Positions 11,524-54,687 of a DNA stretch of 64,000 bases are shown here, in pieces. The stretch's first letter is position 1, and each line of letters opens with the position of its first letter. Under the pieces are notes generated by a model that worked only from the letters and a program-made list of their open reading frames with translations, made no database searches and was not told the origin of the DNA. Source of the DNA: Minisyncoccia bacterium (lineage in GTDB: Bacteria > Patescibacteriota > Minisyncoccia > Phycocordibacterales > Zambryskibacteraceae); assembly GCA_049651785.1 (NCBI GenBank), contig JBASCT010000022.1, positions 44 to 64,043 on the forward strand, given 5' to 3'. The translations under genes were made by a program, and so were the position numbers.

Positions 11524-11541
11524 ATAAAGATAAAGAAATGA
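10888..11541 (+). CDS. tnpA: IS200-like / REP-associated tyrosine (Y1, HUH) transposase
   Basis: 217 aa; HUH motif NSNHFHFLI and catalytic tyrosine region HLSAYVNLN. The stop overlaps the rsmA start (ATGA). Confidence 0.75.
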   Translation: MRNIRLAEGEFYHVYNRGVDKRVVFSNKKDFDRFLEGMKIFNTKENVGNLTRHSSTEGEEKLVDFVAYCINSNHFHFLITPLTEKGLEKFMHKLCMGYSKYFNAKYHRSGALFQGKFKAIHVDTNEYLLHLSAYVNLNEKVHRHEGNSRSSWEEYAESATTGLCKKDIILGQFKNRGEYVTFAKKALKHIVDKKLSLKDLESNSYPLTLGVNIKIKK

Positions 11542-12356
11542 GGGCAAAAAAATCACTCGGACAACATTTTCTAAAATCGGAGAGGGCTCTCGGAAAAATC
11601 GTAGAGGCGGGAGAACTTAAGTCGGGCGATGCGGTACTCGAAATCGGTCCGGGTATGGGAGCTCTGACACAAAAAATGTTGGAAACAGGAGCAAGAGTTA
11701 CCGCCGTTGAAAAAGATGATGGGTTGTTCGGATTTTTAAAAAATAAATTTGAAAAAGAAATCGTTGAAAAAAAATTAACCTTAACTCACGCCGACATTCT
11801 GGATTTAGAAATTTCTTACTCCTTACTTCCTGCTCCTTACTACAAGCTCATCTCCAACATTCCCTACAACATTACCGGCGCAATCCTGGAAAAATTCCTG
11901 TCGACAAAATATCAGCCGGAACGAATGGTTCTTCTCGTTCAGAAAGAAGTGGCGGAAAGAATTGTCGCAAAAGATGGCAAAGAAAGTATTTTGTCACTTT
12001 CCGTAAAAGTTTATGGCAAACCAAGATATGTTGAGACCGTCAAGGCCGGCTCATTTGCGCCGAGACCGAAGGTGGATTCGGCAATTATCGCCATAGAAAA
12101 TATTTCCAAAGAATTTTTCAGAAAATTTCCGGAAAAAGAGTTTTTCGCGCTCCTTAAGGCAGGTTTCAAATCCAAGCGTAAAAAACTCTCTTCAAACCTC
12201 TCCAATCTTTTCGGTAAAAGTGAAATTAATGAGATTTTCAAGAAACTTGGCATAGGCAAGAACGCTCGGGCGGAGGACTTGAATCTCGATTTGTGGCAAA
12301 AATTGGCTGAAAATCTGGAAAAAATGGAAAATAAGAAGAATTTGACGAGTGAATAG
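11538..12356 (+). CDS. rsmA: 16S rRNA (adenine1518/1519-N6)-dimethyltransferase
   Basis: 272 aa; LGQHFL, SAM-binding VLEIGPGMGALT, and NIPYNIT motifs. Confidence 0.9.
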   Translation: MRAKKSLGQHFLKSERALGKIVEAGELKSGDAVLEIGPGMGALTQKMLETGARVTAVEKDDGLFGFLKNKFEKEIVEKKLTLTHADILDLEISYSLLPAPYYKLISNIPYNITGAILEKFLSTKYQPERMVLLVQKEVAERIVAKDGKESILSLSVKVYGKPRYVETVKAGSFAPRPKVDSAIIAIENISKEFFRKFPEKEFFALLKAGFKSKRKKLSSNLSNLFGKSEINEIFKKLGIGKNARAEDLNLDLWQKLAENLEKMENKKNLTSE

Positions 12357-14397: not shown

Positions 14398-16485
14398 TTG
14401 ATGAAAAGATACGCCAAGAGAATTTCCGCCTTTCTCCTCGTTTTTATCCTTGTCTTCGGGATAAGTGGCGTTATCGCACCCCAAACGGCTGATGCTTGGA
14501 TATTCGAATACATACAGTGTGCCCTGAGTAACAGCTCGTTTGCTTGCGCTCTACGAGGCTTGGTTACCGGGCTCATGGAGGCGGTGCTTGCAATTGCGGG
14601 TCTTATTACCGGTCTTGCTGGAGTCATGCTTAACGGTGTTGTTTATCACACTGTCGTTAACGTGGCACAGAACTACGCCAATATTCCCGCGATAGACGCG
14701 GCCTGGACCACCGTCCGAGACCTCGCCAATATGGTCTTTATCTTCCTGCTCCTTTACGCGGCAATACGCATCATCCTCGGCTGGGGCGAGGACAGTAAGC
14801 GTCTCATCGTCAATATCATCATCGTCGCCATTCTCATAAACTTCAGTCTCTTTTTCACAAGAATTGTCATAGATGCTTCGAACATGTTGGCGCTCTTCTT
14901 CTACGGCGCCATAAGCCCTGGCGCATCAGTTAATAACTTTTCGCTTGACCCGGGTTCCACGAGCATCGCCGATCAGTTTATGAGCCGGCTTGAATTAACA
15001 AACCTTTATAATGCTGAGGGTGTTGAGACCAGCACAATCTTTGTCATGGGAATAATGGGCACGATGATGCTCATGATAGCTGCGTTTGTCTTTTTCTCCA
15101 TATCTATCATGTTTATCGTGCGGTATGTGATGCTAATTTTCGTTCTTATCCTCTCACCATTGGCCTTTCTTTCATACGCGTTTCCCGCCCTAAGAGGGGC
15201 GGGAAGTAAGTGGCTCGACACGCTGATAGGACAATCGTTTTTTGCGCCAATATATTTCATGATTACTTGGATTGCCCTAAGAGTACTGGGAGATGTAGCG
15301 AGAGTATTGGGAATCGATACCGGAGATTTGCAAGATGCAAGAAACTCCATATCACAGATTGCCACGGCCCAACCCGGCCAGCTGACCATAGAACCCTTTA
15401 TGGTGATTTTGAATTTTCTAATAGTTATTGTCTTTCTCTTGGCTTCACTATCTATCGCAAAGAGTTGGGCCAATCGGGCGGGAAATAGTGCACAAAAGGC
15501 AAACAAGTGGCTTGCTGGGGCTGCCGTTGGAACTGCGGCATTTGCCGGCAGACAAACGGTCGGTAGATATGCCGCCAGAACAGCAGAAAGGGGTGATTTG
15601 AAAGAAAGAGCGCTCGCTGGAGATAGGGGTGCTCGTCTGCAACTTTGGGCGGCAAGAAAGGGGGCCGCCGCAAGTTTTGATGCTAGAGGAGCAGGTCTTG
15701 GTATTGGTGCCGCAATGGATATGGGCAAGGCTGGTGGCAAGGGTGGCTATGCTGAATTCAGAAAGAAACAGGATGATAAGCTAGAGAAAATTGCTAAATC
15801 TTACGGTCCTTCGGAAGTAGAAATTGATCAGGCAAAACAAGCCTTGGCGAGGGCAAAAGAGAGCGGAACAGAACAAGAAAGGAGAGAGGCGCAAGCAAGG
15901 GTGGATCAGCTAGTGGGTATAAAAGGAGGAAAAGAAGGGAAAAAAGAAATCGCATCAAGAAAAGAAGATTTAAGGAGGAGAAAGGAACAGGCATTAAAAA
16001 ATGATGCGAACCTACAATCCTCCATAAACAAAGAGTTGGATATTGAGGAACAAATAAGGGATCAGGAACGCGAGGTTTCCATTGCCGCCAATCCGCACCT
16101 GAAAAGAGAGCGCGAAATGAAGCTTGATGAACTTAAAACACAATTAGAAAAACAGAAACAGGCTTCTAAAGCATTGAGTTCGTCTATTACTGAGGCCTTT
16201 GACAAAGAAATTGAGGGAATAAAAGAAACGAGTAGTTTGGCAGAAAAACATAAGCTGGCCTATGCTTCAATGATTGAAAAAGATTTCATTCCAACAATCC
16301 TCGGCTACAACAAGACAGCGGCGGCCAAAATAAGGGCTGGTAAATCAAAGAAAGATCAAGCTGTAGAGGCATTAAAGGGGCTCCAAGAAGAAGGCGTGAT
16401 TGAAGGTGGTGCCGAAAAAGAGGCGGCGGAACCAGAAACTTCACCAGAAACAACTAATTCTGAAGGTAATCCAAAGGCCGCATGA
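14398..16485 (+). CDS. Polytopic membrane protein with long K/E-rich coiled-coil tail (VirB6/TrbL-like topology)
   Basis: 695 aa; N-terminal signal, about six hydrophobic helices over residues 50-350, then about 300 aa of charged coiled coil. Assigned by topology and its position next to the VirB4-like gene. Confidence 0.55.
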   Translation: MMKRYAKRISAFLLVFILVFGISGVIAPQTADAWIFEYIQCALSNSSFACALRGLVTGLMEAVLAIAGLITGLAGVMLNGVVYHTVVNVAQNYANIPAIDAAWTTVRDLANMVFIFLLLYAAIRIILGWGEDSKRLIVNIIIVAILINFSLFFTRIVIDASNMLALFFYGAISPGASVNNFSLDPGSTSIADQFMSRLELTNLYNAEGVETSTIFVMGIMGTMMLMIAAFVFFSISIMFIVRYVMLIFVLILSPLAFLSYAFPALRGAGSKWLDTLIGQSFFAPIYFMITWIALRVLGDVARVLGIDTGDLQDARNSISQIATAQPGQLTIEPFMVILNFLIVIVFLLASLSIAKSWANRAGNSAQKANKWLAGAAVGTAAFAGRQTVGRYAARTAERGDLKERALAGDRGARLQLWAARKGAAASFDARGAGLGIGAAMDMGKAGGKGGYAEFRKKQDDKLEKIAKSYGPSEVEIDQAKQALARAKESGTEQERREAQARVDQLVGIKGGKEGKKEIASRKEDLRRRKEQALKNDANLQSSINKELDIEEQIRDQEREVSIAANPHLKREREMKLDELKTQLEKQKQASKALSSSITEAFDKEIEGIKETSSLAEKHKLAYASMIEKDFIPTILGYNKTAAAKIRAGKSKKDQAVEALKGLQEEGVIEGGAEKEAAEPETSPETTNSEGNPKAA

Positions 16486-16973
16486 CCGAAGAAGAAAAGC
16501 TTATAAAAGAACAGTGGGACAAACTACCGCCGGCACTCCAGCGGGCGATTGAATCTCTGCCTTGGAAAAGTTTGGTGAAAGAAGTTGGCCAGGCGAATGC
16601 CTTAGACAACGAGCAGTTGGTCTCGCTTGAGAGAGAGGCGATGTTTATCCTATATGGCTTTGAGAACCCCGCTGATTTTGTCTCAAACATCACAAGAGAG
16701 GTTGGGGTTTCTGAAGAAAAAGCTCTGGCGGTAGCGGCAGCCATTGCCGAAAAGATTTTTGAACCTATTTCTACAAAAATTGCTGCTGGGTCTGGCTCAA
16801 ACGCAGCTCTACCCATGGTCGAGGAGGGGGAAAAAGTTCATGATGCTCCGCATGTTGAAGCGGCACCAACACAGCCTGCGCCGCAGGCACGGCCGGAACC
16901 GAAGATAAAAACTCCTTTACCAGATTATCGTTACCCCGACGGCACGGATCCCTACCGCGAACCTCTTAAGTAG
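16482..16973 (+). CDS. Hypothetical protein (operon member; start overlaps upstream stop)
   Basis: 163 aa; ATGA overlap at 16482-16485. Confidence 0.45.
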   Translation: MTEEEKLIKEQWDKLPPALQRAIESLPWKSLVKEVGQANALDNEQLVSLEREAMFILYGFENPADFVSNITREVGVSEEKALAVAAAIAEKIFEPISTKIAAGSGSNAALPMVEEGEKVHDAPHVEAAPTQPAPQARPEPKIKTPLPDYRYPDGTDPYREPLK

Positions 16974-16988
16974 GCTCGCGGGGAAGCA

Positions 16989-17008
16989 GGGAGTAAGAAG
17001 TAGGAAGT
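16989..17008. repeat. Left inverted repeat (GGGAGTAAGAAGTAGGAAGT) abutting the ATG of the four-helix-bundle gene
   Basis: Its reverse complement matches ACTTCTTACTTCCTAC-type units in 17396-17452. Confidence 0.6.
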
Positions 17009-17392
17009 ATGATAATTGATGCAAAAATCAAAACCTTTAGGGATCTAAAAGTCTGGCAAGAGGCTCATAAGTTAGTGCTGGAAATATACAAAGTTACCAA
17101 AAGTTTTCCCAAAGAAGAGTCGTTTGGTCTAACTAGCCAGCTTAGGCGAGCATCGGTGTCTATAACCTCGAACATTTCCGAAGGTTTTAACAGAAGTTCT
17201 GCCAAAGAAAAACTACAGTTTTATTACATTGCCCTCGGTTCGCTCGCCGAGGTTCAAAATCAATTACTAATAGCGAAAGACATAGGTTATATAAAGCCAG
17301 AAATGTCTGATAAAATAGAAGAGCAGTTGATCGTGGCACAAAAATTGCTTAACGGTTTTATAAAAAGTACCCGTTCATTCTCCGAATCATGA
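17009..17392 (+). CDS. Four-helix-bundle protein of the type encoded in 23S rRNA intervening sequences
   Basis: 127 aa; FRDLKVWQEAHKLVLEIYKVTKSFPKEESFGLTSQLRRASVSITSNISEG is the characteristic signature. Confidence 0.75.
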   Translation: MIIDAKIKTFRDLKVWQEAHKLVLEIYKVTKSFPKEESFGLTSQLRRASVSITSNISEGFNRSSAKEKLQFYYIALGSLAEVQNQLLIAKDIGYIKPEMSDKIEEQLIVAQKLLNGFIKSTRSFSES

Positions 17393-17395
17393 CCC

Positions 17396-17452
17396 ATCTT
17401 ACTCCTTACTCCTTCCTTCCTACTTCTTACTTCTTACTCCTTACTTCTTAAT
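17396..17452. repeat. Right inverted repeat with tandem CTTACTC/CTTCCTA heptamer-like units
   Basis: ATCTTACTCCTTACTCCTTCCTTCCTACTTCTTACTTCTTACTCCTTACTTCTTA; starts 4 nt after the stop and ends 4 nt before the next ATG. Confidence 0.6.
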
Positions 17453-17455
17453 TTC

Positions 17456-17884
17456 ATGCGCTTTCAAGTCCCACAATTCATAGAGGTGGAAGACAAAATT
17501 TTCGGACCACTTACCTTTAAGCAATTCGTCTACGCCGGCGGCGGTATCGGCGTCGCGGTCGTTCTCTTTTTCCTCATCCCGAAGTTTCTCGCCATTCTCA
17601 TCGGCCTGCCGATAATGGCTTTCGGCTTCGCCCTCGCGTTCTACAAGATTAACGGCAAGCCGTTCATCGCCGTCGTCGAAGCGTTTGCCAAATACACTTT
17701 CACCAACAAGCTCTATCTCTGGAAAAAGGAGGAGAAAGCGCCGGTCGCGGGCGAGAGAGACAAGCCCTTGGAGCAAGTTTATGTGCCGAAGCTCTCCGAT
17801 TCGAAACTTAGAGAGCTCACCTGGGGCCTCGGGGTCAAAGATGACATAAATTCAGAGAGCGATCGGAGAGAGGATAAGATATAA
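17456..17884 (+). CDS. Small two-TM protein (VirB3/PrgI-like candidate)
   Basis: 142 aa; two hydrophobic helices (IGVAVVLFFLIPKFLAILIGLPIMAFGFALAFY) and the position directly upstream of the VirB4-like ATPase. Confidence 0.45.
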   Translation: MRFQVPQFIEVEDKIFGPLTFKQFVYAGGGIGVAVVLFFLIPKFLAILIGLPIMAFGFALAFYKINGKPFIAVVEAFAKYTFTNKLYLWKKEEKAPVAGERDKPLEQVYVPKLSDSKLRELTWGLGVKDDINSESDRREDKI

Positions 17885-17891
17885 TTAGACA

Positions 17892-18545
17892 ATGGCCCAA
17901 GCTTCGAGCCCCACACAGGAGTTCATCCCGATAAAAGAGGTGCGCGACGGCGTCGTGATGCTCAAAGATGGCGGCATGCGCGCCATCCTCCTCTGCTCGT
18001 CCTTAAACTTCTCGCTCAAGTCGGAGGACGAGAGGCAGGCTATCCTTTACCAATTCCAGGATTTCCTGAATTCGCTCGACTTTTCTATAGAAATAATCAT
18101 TCAGTCGAGAAAGCTCGACATCCGCCCCTACATCGCCCTCCTCGAGACGCAGGAAAAGAATCAGGTAAACAATCTGATGAAAATACAGGTGAGAGAATAT
18201 ATCGAGTTCATAAAGAATTTCACCGAGTCGACAAGCATTATGACCAAACACTTCTTCATCGTCGTGCCCTACAGTCCTGCCCTCCTCTCGACGGGGAAGG
18301 CGGATGGGCTCGCCGGCGGTATTACTTCGAAGCTCGGGCTCGGCGGTAAGAAAGAAGGTCCAATAACAACCGAGACAAGCTTCGACGAGAACAGGAGCCA
18401 GCTCGAAGAGCGCTTGGGCGTCGTCGAACAGGGTCTCATAAGAAGCGGTATTAGGGTCGCGCGACTGGGAACGGAAGAGGCGATAGAACTGTTCTACAAA
18501 GCGTTTAACCCCGGCGAGACCGAGAAGCCGATTAAACTCCAATAA
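17892..18545 (+). CDS. Hypothetical protein; possibly the detached N-terminal domain of the VirB4-like ATPase
   Basis: 217 aa; ends 1 nt before the 18547 ATG in a different frame. Combined length 843 aa matches VirB4/TraC proteins. Confidence 0.45.
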   Translation: MAQASSPTQEFIPIKEVRDGVVMLKDGGMRAILLCSSLNFSLKSEDERQAILYQFQDFLNSLDFSIEIIIQSRKLDIRPYIALLETQEKNQVNNLMKIQVREYIEFIKNFTESTSIMTKHFFIVVPYSPALLSTGKADGLAGGITSKLGLGGKKEGPITTETSFDENRSQLEERLGVVEQGLIRSGIRVARLGTEEAIELFYKAFNPGETEKPIKLQ

Positions 18546-18546
18546 C

Positions 18547-20427
18547 ATGGGGCTCTTCGATACACTCTTCAATAAAAAGAAGGATGGGAAGCAGGACATT
18601 GCCTCTATCCTGCCTAAAGAGATTTTCGAAGCGGGCGCCTTGGAGCTCAAAGATATTATCGCCCCCTCCGCCCTCAAGGTCGGGCCGAAAGAAATAAATC
18701 TCGGTGAGAAGGTTTTGAGAAGTTTCTTTGTAATCTCCTATCCGCGCTTCCTCTCCGAGGGGTGGTTCAGTCCAATTATCAATATGGACAAGGTCTTCGA
18801 CGTCTCAATCTTCGTCCACCCGATAGAGACCTCCAAGGTTCTGCGCCAATTCCAAAGAAAGGTTGCCGAAGTGCAGTCCCAAATTCACGGCAGAGAGGAG
18901 AAGGGTCTTGTGCGCGATCCGGTCCTTGATGTCGCCTACCAAGACCTCGAGAACCTGCGCGACCAGCTCCAACAGGCGCAAGAAAAGCTTTTTGACGTCG
19001 GTCTCTACATCACAATCTACGGCGACAACTCCGATGATTTGGATAAAATCGAGTCGGAGATAAAATCCATTCTTGAAGCAAAACTCATCTACGTTAAGCC
19101 CGCCCTCTTCCAGCAGGAACAGGGCTTCAAAAGCACCTTACCCTTAGGAAACGACCTCTTGGAGGTTCACTCTAAGCTAAATTCCTCTCCACTCTCCTCT
19201 CTCTTTCCATTTACTTCATTTGACCTGACTTCCGACAAAGGCATCCTCTACGGTATTAATAGACATAACTCCTCCCTCGTCCTCTTCGACCGCTTCTCGC
19301 TTGAGAACTACAACTCAATAATGTTCGCGAAGTCCGGCGCCGGCAAATCCTACGCCACGAAGCTTGAAATCTTGAGGACTCTTATGTTCGACACGGAGGT
19401 TATCGTCATCGACCCGGAGCGAGAGTACGAATACATGGCGGAAGCGACGGGCGGCAGATATTTCAAGATCTCCCTTAACTCCGAGCACCACATCAACCCC
19501 TTCGACCTACCCGTCCCGGGCCCGGACGAGAGCACGGCCAATGTCCTTCGTTCAAATATTATCAACCTAGTCGGCCTCTTCCGCCTGATGATGGGCGGTC
19601 TCACGGCGGAAGAAGACGCCATAATAGATCGCGCCATCACCGAGACCTATGCTCTGAAGGACATTACGGCCGAGTCAGACTTCAGAAATGTCGAGCCGCC
19701 TCTCATGTCTGACTTCGAGCTCGTGCTCGCGGGCATGGAGGGTGGCGAGTCTCTGGCCCAAAGACTTTCAAAATACACCAAAGGCACGTGGTCGGGCTTC
19801 ATCAACCGCCCTTCGAATGTCGATATCAATAAAAAGTTCGTGGTCTTCTCGCTCCGAGACATGGAGGATGAACTGAAACCCATCGCCATGTACATCGTCA
19901 CGCACTACATCTGGAATTCGATTAGGAAAGATCTTAGAAAGCGCCTCCTCGTCATTGACGAAGCGTGGTGGATGATGAAGTCGGAGGACACCGCCTCTTT
20001 CCTCATGGGCCTCGTCAAGCGAGGCAGAAAATATTTCCTCGGGGTCGCCACGATAACGCAGGACGTCGGGGACTTCTTGAAGAGTCCTTATGGACTCCCG
20101 ATTATCACCAACTCGTCAATTCAGATTCTGATGAAGCAGTCGCCAACAATTATCGACGAGCTTCAGAAAACTTTCAACCTGACGGATGAGGAAAAGTTCT
20201 TATTGCTTGAGTCCGACAGGGGAGAAGGAATCTTCTTCGCCGGCCTCAAGCACGTCGCGATAAAAAACATTGCTTCCTACACCGAGGACCAGATTATCAC
20301 CTCCGACCCGTCGCAAGTCTTGGCCATCAAGCGCGCCAAGCAAGAAGAAGTGTGGAAACAGGATGCCGAAACGGAAGCCAAGAAAGCCGAGATCCTTGCG
20401 GCCAAGGCGCAACCGAATAAACAATGA
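18547..20427 (+). CDS. virB4: VirB4/TraC-family T4SS ATPase
   Basis: 626 aa; Walker A FAKSGAGKSY, Walker B RLLVIDEAWWMM, and C-terminal motifs typical of the CagE/TrbE/VirB4 family. Confidence 0.8.
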   Translation: MGLFDTLFNKKKDGKQDIASILPKEIFEAGALELKDIIAPSALKVGPKEINLGEKVLRSFFVISYPRFLSEGWFSPIINMDKVFDVSIFVHPIETSKVLRQFQRKVAEVQSQIHGREEKGLVRDPVLDVAYQDLENLRDQLQQAQEKLFDVGLYITIYGDNSDDLDKIESEIKSILEAKLIYVKPALFQQEQGFKSTLPLGNDLLEVHSKLNSSPLSSLFPFTSFDLTSDKGILYGINRHNSSLVLFDRFSLENYNSIMFAKSGAGKSYATKLEILRTLMFDTEVIVIDPEREYEYMAEATGGRYFKISLNSEHHINPFDLPVPGPDESTANVLRSNIINLVGLFRLMMGGLTAEEDAIIDRAITETYALKDITAESDFRNVEPPLMSDFELVLAGMEGGESLAQRLSKYTKGTWSGFINRPSNVDINKKFVVFSLRDMEDELKPIAMYIVTHYIWNSIRKDLRKRLLVIDEAWWMMKSEDTASFLMGLVKRGRKYFLGVATITQDVGDFLKSPYGLPIITNSSIQILMKQSPTIIDELQKTFNLTDEEKFLLLESDRGEGIFFAGLKHVAIKNIASYTEDQIITSDPSQVLAIKRAKQEEVWKQDAETEAKKAEILAAKAQPNKQ

Positions 20428-54487: not shown

Positions 54488-54560
54488 GGCGGCTATAGTT
54501 TAGTGGTAGAACTCCAGCTTGTGGAGCTGGTCGCGAGAGTTCGATTCTCTCTAGCCGCCC
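54488..54560 (+). tRNA. tRNA-His (anticodon GUG) with genomically encoded G-1
   Basis: Manual fold G(-1)-GCGGCTA-TA-GTTT-AGTGGTA-GAAC-T-CCAGC-TTGTGGA-GCTGG-TCGCG-AGAGT-TCGATTC-TCTCT-AGCCGCC-C; G-1 pairs with discriminator C. Confidence 0.8.
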
Positions 54561-54570
54561 AAGATACAAA

Positions 54571-54600
54571 AATGTCTGTTCTTACGACAGGCATTTTTGT
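54571..54600 (+). terminator. Terminator hairpin AATGTCTGT-TCTTACG-ACAGGCATT + TTTTGTT after tRNA-His
   Basis: Direct reading. Confidence 0.6.
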
Positions 54601-54617: not shown

Positions 54618-54635
54618 GGAGAGAGAATCGAACTC
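54618..54635. repeat. Inverted partial copy of the tRNA-His T-arm (GGAGAGAGAATCGAACTC)
   Basis: Reverse complement GAGTTCGATTCTCTCTCC matches tRNA-His 54536-54552 at 16/17 positions. Confidence 0.6.
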
Positions 54636-54687
54636 GGGAAGGGGGTCGGGGAAACTCTAGTTTCCCCGTGGAGGAAGGCAGGGCGAT

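Follow-up and report, generated by a model that had tools for sequence, protein, structure and literature searches.

An intervening-sequence-type gene cassette with inverted heptamer arms between the genes of a Patescibacteria type IV secretion operon

Intervening sequences (IVSs) have been held for more than 30 years to be an oddity of rRNA genes, of unknown origin and function. The 23S IVS of Coxiella burnetii, a 428-nt insertion in helix 45, contains an S23p open reading frame (ORF) that is preceded by two or three GACAGAT heptamers, whose number differs between strains; RNase III removes the IVS by cutting where the first repeat begins, the released RNA has a short life, and the ORF seems to be in decay and to remain untranslated (PMC4990558). 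Here, we describe an element of similar anatomy that lies between two genes of a type IV secretion system (T4SS)-like operon, in a stretch of 64,000 nucleotides of contig JBASCT010000022.1 (assembly GCA_049651785.1, a Minisyncoccia bacterium, one of the ultra-small members of the candidate phyla radiation), hereafter the window. The insert comprises ~479 bp (16974..17452), as defined against the empty site of the closest related operon, and consists of a four-helix-bundle (4HB) gene between two inverted arrays of 7-nt repeats. We put the probability that it is an IVS-type palindromic gene cassette living in polycistronic mRNA instead of rRNA at roughly 0.7.

Several other systems resemble parts of this element. 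The ORF-less rRNA IVSs of Salmonella and Yersinia and the Correia/nemis elements of Neisseria are inverted-repeat hairpins of ~100–150 nt that are co-transcribed and cut by RNase III, and they correspond to the miniature elements of 80–130 nt that we found at operon junctions. Unlike these elements, the window cassette bears a gene, has arms of 7-nt repeats rather than a conserved terminal inverted repeat (TIR), and shows no evident TA duplication. In the mRNAs of phages T7 and lambda, an intercistronic stem is cut by RNase III, which splits the polycistronic RNA and leaves the upstream fragment with a protective hairpin at its end; such sites are short hairpins fixed in a phage genome, whereas the window cassette is gene-bearing and polymorphic by gain or loss. 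ORFs of the PF05635 family have also been reported inside 16S and 23S insertions of bacteria of the candidate phyla radiation (PMC11270868), and cas genes have been seen to enclose 18 23S_rRNA_IVP genes, as in the case of cmr3 and cmr2 (PMC3936711). While rRNA IVSs, the Coxiella heptamers and the 23S_rRNA_IVP genes of cas loci are thus already known, we found no description of heptamer-armed, gain/loss-polymorphic IVS-type cassettes in mRNA operons in a literature search that largely did not cover subscription journals.

The Coxiella IVS (and likewise those of the Leptospira, Brucella and Xanthomonas type) and the window cassette both carry a PF05635/S23p ORF of ~125 aa. In the Coxiella IVS as in the window, tandem heptamers stand directly 5' of the ATG and vary in number between strains or relatives, inverted repeats pair into a long stem that encloses the ORF, the total length is ~430–480 nt, and the distribution is sporadic. 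The two differ in the host RNA, which is a protein-coding operon transcript in the window and 23S rRNA helix 45 in Coxiella; the insert is not inside a 23S or 16S rRNA gene, at helix 25 or 45, but between two protein-coding genes. They also differ in the ORF, which is intact and under purifying selection in the window and decaying and probably untranslated in Coxiella, and in an additional hairpin at the end of the upstream gene that the Coxiella IVS does not have; cleavage is known for Coxiella and predicted here. Since the Coxiella IVS shares this anatomy and is cut by RNase III, an IVS-type mobile cassette in mRNA is the best reading of the locus. The original prediction, made from the letters of the window without database searches, had likewise compared the architecture with RNase III-processed rRNA IVSs, and the S23p ORF and heptamers of the RNase III-cut Coxiella IVS (PMC4990558) bear the comparison out.

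Anatomy of the cassette and its protein

The cassette ORF (17009..17392, forward strand, 127 aa) matched PF05635 23S_rRNA_IVP over the full model (positions 1–106, E 4.3e-41, 139.9 bits against a cut-off of 33.8) and TIGR02436 “four helix bundle protein” (132.8 bits, cut-off 24). The protein contains the motif R47-x3-S51-x3-N55-x2-E58 (QLRRASVSITSNISEG), with the leading G replaced by Q, and the residues R47, S51, N55 and E58 are invariant or nearly so across 40 homologues; (G)xxRxxxSxxxNxxE is the conserved motif of XCC0516 homologues (PMC3936711). An AlphaFold model of the monomer (pLDDT 94.3) consists of four helices, and Foldseek placed it closest to XCC0516 (2GSC; TM 0.83–0.98, rmsd 0.5–1.2 Å) and next to BT_0352 (2RLD), in line with a phmmer match to 2GSC (E 3.3e-20). 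The signature of the 4HB proteins of rRNA IVSs, which had been read from the translation alone, was thus recovered by both family models, by the structure model and by its 2GSC-like fold. In comparisons with orthologous carriers of the cassette (see below), dN was 0.13–0.22 with saturated dS (dN/dS ≤0.18), which indicates that the protein is maintained by purifying selection.

To our knowledge, the only understood member of the family is Avd, a nucleic-acid-binding partner of reverse transcriptase. Avd and the cassette protein share the 4HB fold, and the solved relatives of the latter also share the pentameric assembly; XCC0516 is given as a homopentameric toroid where it is cited in PMC3936711 and PMC4990558. 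The cassette model resembles Avd of the Bordetella phage retroelement more distantly than it does XCC0516 (4DWL and 8UB7, TM ~0.74), at a sequence identity of ~11%, and Avd binds nucleic acid within a retroelement ribonucleoprotein (8UB7). This fold, the weak matches to bAvd (PF22296, 26.3 bits) and NF033474 (27.6 bits), and the recurrence of the family in cas loci could suggest an Avd-type accessory protein of a diversity-generating retroelement (DGR) or another defence- or CRISPR-linked factor. We regard this as very improbable, as both scores lie far below the respective cut-offs of 40 and 80 and the genes next to the cassette belong to a T4SS, while occurrences in cas operons are better explained as further insertions into operons. 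The DGR reading was rejected on the sub-threshold Avd scores, the absence of an adjacent reverse transcriptase, which Avd loci have, and the absence of a template/variable repeat pair in a self-comparison of the window, and the reading as a defence system was rejected after PADLOC gave no match. On the structural comparison, the protein is probably pentameric and Avd-like and probably binds nucleic acid, with the heptamer arrays as the obvious candidate, and it probably serves the maintenance or spread of the element rather than secretion. Arms typically have 4–5 heptamers, which fits the more speculative idea that a pentamer may bind the arrays.

The 5' arm (16982..17012, forward strand) consists of about four heptamers (GGAAGCA GGGAGTA AGAAGTA GGAAGTA TGA), which Tandem Repeats Finder reported as a period-7 array of 4.0 copies at 16982–17009 and which was also found by the inverted-repeat search and in the pairing of the minimum free energy (MFE) structure. 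The 3' arm (17397..17452, forward strand) consists of ~7.7 heptamers of consensus TCTTACT (7.7 copies at 17397–17450, score 73) that are reverse-complementary to the repeat of the 5' arm. A 20-nt repeat, GGGAGTAAGAAGTAGGAAGT, had been reported to abut the ATG of the cassette gene; it indeed occupies 16989–17008, and its only other matches in the window are two reverse-complement ones, both in the downstream block (chance expectation 0.01 in 64 kb). The arm itself is larger than this repeat, as it begins at ~16982 and takes in the start codon: the ATG lies inside the last heptamer (AGTAAGA/AGTAGGA/AGTATGA), and the arm includes a purine-rich, Shine-Dalgarno (SD)-like stretch along with it. As the start codon is part of the last heptamer, a stem formed by the arms covers the cassette's own ribosome-binding region. 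The downstream block had been described as 57 nt of tandem heptamers ending 4 nt before the next ATG; the heptamers stand, but the block is 54–56 nt long and ends 3–5 nt before that ATG (17456).

That the two arms complement each other, as their first description held, is seen in the two matches just mentioned and in arms of 30 nt with 87% complementarity (16983–17012 with 17418–17447), alternative registers of which were also reported by the repeat finder. Complementarity was 0.87 in the best register, 0.64 at shifts of 7 or 14 nt and 0.33 at other shifts; since the best register is biased by its selection, 0.87 is no proof of position-specific covariation. When 16975–17460 (486 nt) was folded as RNA, the arms formed a closing stem of ~30 bp that loops out the ORF exactly as had been proposed (MFE −124.1 kcal/mol; z = −3.1, with 0/100 shuffles as stable). 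The arm–arm duplex had −43.4 kcal/mol compared with −25.6 ± 3.5 kcal/mol for 500 shuffles (best −39.7) and with a mean of −19.0 and a best of −37.5 kcal/mol for 389 identically spaced pairs of segments from other parts of the window. The element thereby has both the inverted repeats that close a long stem around an insert and the S23p ORF preceded by tandem heptamers of the Coxiella type. No promoter-like (sigma-70-type) or intrinsic-terminator-like site was predicted on the forward strand inside the cassette, which therefore must be transcribed with the operon. An Rfam scan found only tRNAs at the gathering threshold and no rRNA in the window, and the cassette region gave one chance-level snoRNA match (E 0.71).

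Filled and empty sites among related operons

The cassette sits exactly between the stop codon of its upstream neighbour and the start codon of the prgI/virB3 gene and is co-oriented with the operon. The upstream gene (16482..16973, forward strand, stop TAG at 16971–16973) encodes a 163-aa protein without a Pfam match that is conserved in the Patescibacteria T4SS-like operon, with orthologues at the same position in the related loci L081, L082 and L084, and the downstream gene (17456..17884, forward strand) encodes a PrgI/VirB3-like protein of 142 aa (PF12666, E 8.9e-13). In the closest related operon, that of locus L088 (VirB4 99% and PrgI 97% identical in amino acids; 91.7% nucleotide identity over 2.9 kb), the upstream TAA is followed by AAAT and then directly by the prgI ATG, so that this operon defines an empty site of 4 nt from stop to start, of the kind that had been suggested as a comparison, and the window has ~479 extra bases. 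On the left flank, the identity to L088 falls from the 91.7% of the right flank to 78.8% in the final 164 nt of the upstream gene, beyond which the two cannot be aligned. These values contradict a reading of L088 as nearly the same strain, and because the left flank is so strongly divergent, replacement of the allele by recombination is no less possible a cause of the empty site than excision or insertion.

Cassettes of the window lineage are present at this junction in at least six further operons (L081, L082/L170, L084/L110, L168, L169), and the closest homologues of the cassette protein, 71–81% identical, lie between the same two genes in those operons. Each orthologous carrier bears AGTAnGn-type heptamers and their complement, while the exact sequences and copy numbers differ. 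In several contigs with a cassette of the window lineage (L083, L086, L169, L170) the sequence ends 25–70 nt past the cassette stop, inside the 3' arm, and the repeat arms thus appear to break metagenome assemblies. Hainich groundwater is the source of several of the related contigs, among them L082, L091, L113 and L139. Among the orthologous carriers, the amino acid identity is 77–80% for the cassette gene, 88% for VirB4, 74% for the TraC-like protein, 57–66% for PrgI and 36–45% for VirB6, which places the cassette gene within the divergence range of its operon neighbours.

Such a pattern could arise if the 4HB gene had been passed on vertically as an accessory part of the T4SS, encoding a small regulator or chaperone, and was never mobile; its repeats would then form a local regulatory hairpin that acts, for example, in translational control or mRNA stabilisation. 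The common position in at least six orthologous operons, the divergence in the range of the neighbours, the strong purifying selection, and the co-orientation with the operon without transcription signals of its own all fit this explanation. Against it, the cassette is absent from L088 and from 13 of the 36 scored junctions between the upstream gene and prgI, and a tree of VirB4 scatters the carriers among empty operons (the respective sister loci of the window and of L081, namely L088 and L121, are both empty), which requires repeated gain, loss or allele exchange. With L088 and many other operons empty, presence among close relatives is sporadic, as it is for rRNA IVSs. In the sequence comparison, then, the cassette behaves as an insertion/deletion polymorphism among relatives. 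Orthologous operons that all contained the gene without repeats would have indicated a vertically inherited member; instead, the repeats are present in every case and empty operons are interspersed. Vertical inheritance also leaves unexplained the relatives with other heptamers at two other junctions of the same operon, the copy of 71% identity in an unrelated operon and the 156 Pfam families among neighbours, and the occurrence of the same element type in rRNA genes (PMC11270868, PMC4990558). The G+C content is a further point on that side: it is ~0.38–0.40 in the insert compared with ~0.51 in the adjoining genes, and the cassette gene lies 10–13 points under its neighbours in all four diverged genomes compared. 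As this deficit is stable across those four genomes, low G+C was rejected as a mark of recent transfer. Overall, we consider vertical inheritance improbable.

Relatives at other junctions and in other operons

For a census of related operons, 80 VirB4 loci were collected from metagenomes and the three junctions between the upstream gene and prgI (unk/prgI), between prgI and the traC-like gene (prgI/traC) and between the latter and virB4 (traC/virB4) were scored wherever both flanking genes were present. Among these 159 junctions, 89 are empty, with gaps from −4 to <30 nt, and 21 hold a full 4HB cassette of 400–520 nt (8 at unk/prgI, 4 at prgI/traC and 9 at traC/virB4); these counts are descriptive and do not represent independent events, since near-duplicate loci are present (L101/L102, L155/L158, L129/L133, L105/L107, L108/L109). 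The full cassettes represent different protein lineages, either 34–61% identical to that of the window or detectable only with hidden Markov models (HMMs), and three were confirmed as PF05635. Each lineage has its own heptamer type, with at least seven types in all (AGTAnGA, TAGCTnn, CAGCTTT, CGACAAC, CAATnnA/TTTACAA, TAAATCC or GTATTAT/GAATTAT). At least 10 further junctions hold ORF-less miniatures of 80–130 nt, with more just below the thresholds, and these consist of two complementary heptamer arrays and a short loop that often keeps an ATG and a few codons. Copies with the same heptamer can occur together, as one full cassette with two miniatures (L153), as a full cassette with one miniature (L120, L142, L137) or as two miniatures (L154, L125, L135).

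Some junctions of these operons hold other genes or motifs. A PD-(D/E)XK gene (PDDEXK_3, “GxxExxY”-type) with long inverted repeats that are not 7-periodic is found at traC/virB4 in L124 (3978–4500) and L141, a 90-aa GIY-YIG nuclease gene adjoins a stop-codon hairpin at prgI/traC in L109 (373–670), and a DUF6364-type gene pair lies at unk/prgI in L111 (2805–3400). The motif GGTTATAAT / GGTTAAAAT is conserved 8–12 nt upstream of the traC-like ATG in both empty and occupied prgI/traC junctions (L090, L108, L112, L121, L126) and could be an internal −10-type promoter or an operon leader element.

Beyond the T4SS, we examined a wider set of 80 loci with homologues of 48–68% identity, which come from many classes of Patescibacteria and from genomes labelled Kiritimatiellales, Nitrospira, Bacteroidota, Cytophagales and Vicinamibacteria. 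The flank-to-flank inverted-repeat score exceeded that of all shuffles by a margin in 55/79 loci, and the flanks matched themselves best at a shift of 7 nt in 67/79 cases upstream and 62/79 downstream, compared with 6/79 ORF-internal controls. The arms of the family are tandem heptamers of diverse sequence (e.g., GAATTAn, GTATnTn, AGATAAC, AGCAnTC and AGTGAAC). Inverted arms with a period of 7 nt are thus family-wide while their sequences are lineage-specific, and ORF-less miniatures of the same design exist. ORFs on one and the same strand flank the cassette in 69/78 of the loci, at distances of tens of nucleotides. Neighbours span 156 Pfam families, among which PrgI and the T4SS pilin, pyruvate:ferredoxin oxidoreductase (POR), LexA/UmuC, ATP synthase subunits and glycosyltransferases recur, and they therefore share no functional theme beyond a position inside an operon. 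One homologue of 71% identity (P0020), for instance, stands in an unrelated operon beside Wzy/TPR and beta-helix proteins and is flanked by AGAATnT heptamers. The cassette of the window belongs, accordingly, to a large family at intergenic junctions of many unrelated operons. It had been suggested that the cassette might recur at other sites, including 23S rRNA genes; the former held for other junctions and unrelated operons, but none of the 40 homologue loci scanned lies inside an rRNA gene. A homologous cassette in L019 (2854–2971) begins 45 nt past a tRNA gene instead of a protein-coding gene, so that the elements also follow tRNA genes, which encode stable RNAs. Together with the empty site of L088, these occurrences agree with the original prediction of an inserted cassette of a mobile type.

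How the element enters a junction may be reflected in a hairpin that spans the stop codon of the upstream gene (16955..16981, forward strand; CCGCGAaCCT-cttaagt-AGGcTCGCGG, with nine Watson–Crick pairs and a fold energy of −14.9 kcal/mol). Its 5' half consists of the last codons of the upstream gene (...REPLK*), residues that are also present in the empty L088 allele, and its 3' half is an inverted copy just inside the insert that is missing from L088. All orthologous carriers have stop-codon hairpins made from their own, differing coding sequence (−13.6 to −23.7 kcal/mol; L081, L082, L084, L168, L169), and perfect palindromes of 15–22 nt centred on the stop codon occur in L129/L133, L144, L153, L016, L055 and L067. 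Hairpins with at least 10 Watson–Crick pairs that span the host stop are found at 15/53 occupied junctions compared with 2/106 short junctions and 1/73 VirB4 stops; in the wider family, the count is 6/72 compared with 1/79 at the stop of the cassette gene itself. The hairpin is thus not universal among cassettes. As perfect palindromes are unlikely to arise via point mutation, a copying step at the DNA level is implied, which would be an insertion footprint, template switching or hairpin-templated repair. At the prgI/traC junctions of L098 and L100 (gaps of 45–53 nt), the final 15 nt of prgI recur in inverted form across a loop of 19–21 nt without a cassette, the loop being in opposite orientations in the two loci (CCTTAAATACGATTCCCAAGG vs CCTTGGGAATCGTATTTAAGG); these hairpins could be what remains of a lost element or be unconnected with any.

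These observations raise the alternative of a DNA-level transposon resembling miniature inverted-repeat transposable elements (MITEs) or Correia elements, with a passenger ORF and with arrays that act as TIRs or as iteron-like sites bound by a trans-acting transposase or recombinase, so that the RNA stem would be incidental. The ORF-less miniatures with the same arms at other junctions (one type being at times present two or three times in a locus, as in L153, L154, L120, L142 and L137), the precise insertion between genes, the resemblance of the palindromic upstream-end duplication to a DNA footprint (with the hairpin counts given above), and the PD-(D/E)XK and GIY-YIG nuclease genes at the same junctions in other operons would be expected of such an element. 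Terminal inverted repeats are present as well, but as heptamer arrays that differ in sequence between lineages; the persistence of only the 7-nt period and the complementarity is unusual for ends recognised by a transposase. The cassette has no ORF other than the 4HB gene, no transposase gene adjoins it, it occurs as a single copy in the 64-kb window, and the comparison of filled and empty sites yields no clear direct repeat and instead an inverted copy of the upstream flank. The strict co-orientation with the host operon (all 4HB copies in T4SS loci, and 69/78 elsewhere) points to a dependence on host transcription, and a homologous stem has been shown experimentally to be processed by RNase III in Coxiella (PMC4990558). 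A DNA-level transposon seems somewhat unlikely to us, and as it concerns how the element moves, it is compatible with the IVS-type cassette in mRNA that we favour.

Several points weigh against that IVS-type mobile cassette. The analysis found neither a transposase or recombinase nor a clear target-site duplication or an excision intermediate, so that the word mobile rests on comparative presence and absence, and recombination between operon alleles, with L088 sharply different on its left flank, could spread or remove the cassette without any activity encoded by the element. Neither the cassette protein nor the arm motif has a second copy in the window, which gives no sign of recent activity in this genome. 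The same site has been kept through considerable divergence (neighbours 25–89% and the 4HB gene 77–80% identical), and an intact, selected protein at a kept site also fits a domesticated function. Further, the compared loci are phylogenetically non-independent, some being near-duplicates, and pairing in vivo, RNase III cleavage and any effect on the operon are predictions.

Consequences for the operon transcript and other features of the window

The host operon contains, in order, a TrbL/VirB6-like gene (14398–16485), the 163-aa gene of unknown family, the cassette, the PrgI/VirB3-like gene, a TraC-like gene (17892–18545) and a gene for a VirB4-like ATPase (18547–20427). It is the chromosomal T4SS of Patescibacteria, which is homologous to monoderm conjugation machinery, and the T4SS-like setting proposed from the translations, with VirB6 upstream and PrgI (VirB3), TraC and VirB4 downstream, is confirmed. 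In the operon transcript, the arms would pair into a duplex of at least 30 bp that hides the SD sequence and ATG of the cassette gene, so that translation of the protein would be possible only on a growing transcript that does not yet include the 3' arm. The duplex would also rejoin the flanking cistrons by bringing the upstream stop (9 nt from the base of the stem) beside the prgI ATG (~8 nt). RNase III needs roughly 20 bp of stem, a length that the cassette stem exceeds, and could cut the duplex as it does in Coxiella, which would remove the cassette RNA and separate the mRNA of the VirB6 side from that of the VirB3/VirB4 side; the stop-codon hairpin might then cap the new 3' end against exonucleases. 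For each of these steps, namely the duplex that occludes the SD and ATG, the apposition of the cistrons, the cleavage by RNase III and the protection of the 3' end, we see a slightly better than even chance. A signature search of the window found no RNase III gene, which says nothing about the rest of the genome.

Because the repeat unit is not divisible by three, a stop or start codon contained in it occurs in all three frames within 21 nt. More speculatively, with a stop in all frames an insert would end the incoming host reading frame wherever it lands; the host ORF terminates within the arm in L108, L121, L120 and L142. A still broader proposal is that the 4HB/heptamer cassettes are widespread autonomous mobile elements that are excised by RNase III at the RNA level and can colonise the dense junctions of essential, highly expressed operons as well as rRNA genes, with the rRNA IVSs as the subset that was noticed first. 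The protein would read the arrays at one heptamer per subunit and drive copying or homing, the miniatures would be non-autonomous derivatives, and the palindromic duplication of 9–22 nt would reflect an undescribed insertion chemistry; we think this extended scheme unlikely as a whole.

As the same S23p and heptamer element is now seen between ordinary operon genes (T4SS, ATP synthase, POR, LexA) in many phyla, the question of the IVSs becomes one of a general mobile cassette that can be studied. For the “association” of 23S_rRNA_IVP genes with cas operons, insertion offers an alternative to shared function, and the same caution may extend to other guilt-by-association matches. In Ca. S. epibionticum, a single cultured species, PrgI and VirB6 of the Patescibacteria T4SS have been reported as indispensable to epibiotic growth (PMC12102498); processing at the cassettes may shape the expression of this system. 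The cassettes could also serve as natural portable RNase III insulators in operon engineering.

The window, which comes from a chromosome, further encodes the RNase P protein, L11, RuvX, KsgA and eight tRNAs. Inside the KsgA/RrnaAD gene (11538–12356), a period-7 run of the CTTACTC type (ISYSLLPAPYYK) is present in the coding region at 11815–11849; it shares 14 bases (TCTTACTCCTTACT) with the 3' arm (17397–17410) and hence complements the 5' arm. An array that could pair with this run was not found nearby; the run could be due to chance or represent a remnant arm or an antisense target. Downstream of the tRNA-His gene (54489–54560) and its terminator hairpin (54570–54598), the opposite strand carries the T-arm region of tRNA-His in inverted form (GGAGAGAGAATCGAACTC) at 54618–54640, ~60 nt past the tRNA. 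In the self-comparison of the window, this copy gives rise to an imperfect palindrome of 105 nt, and an integration event may have left it behind as a piece of a tRNA.

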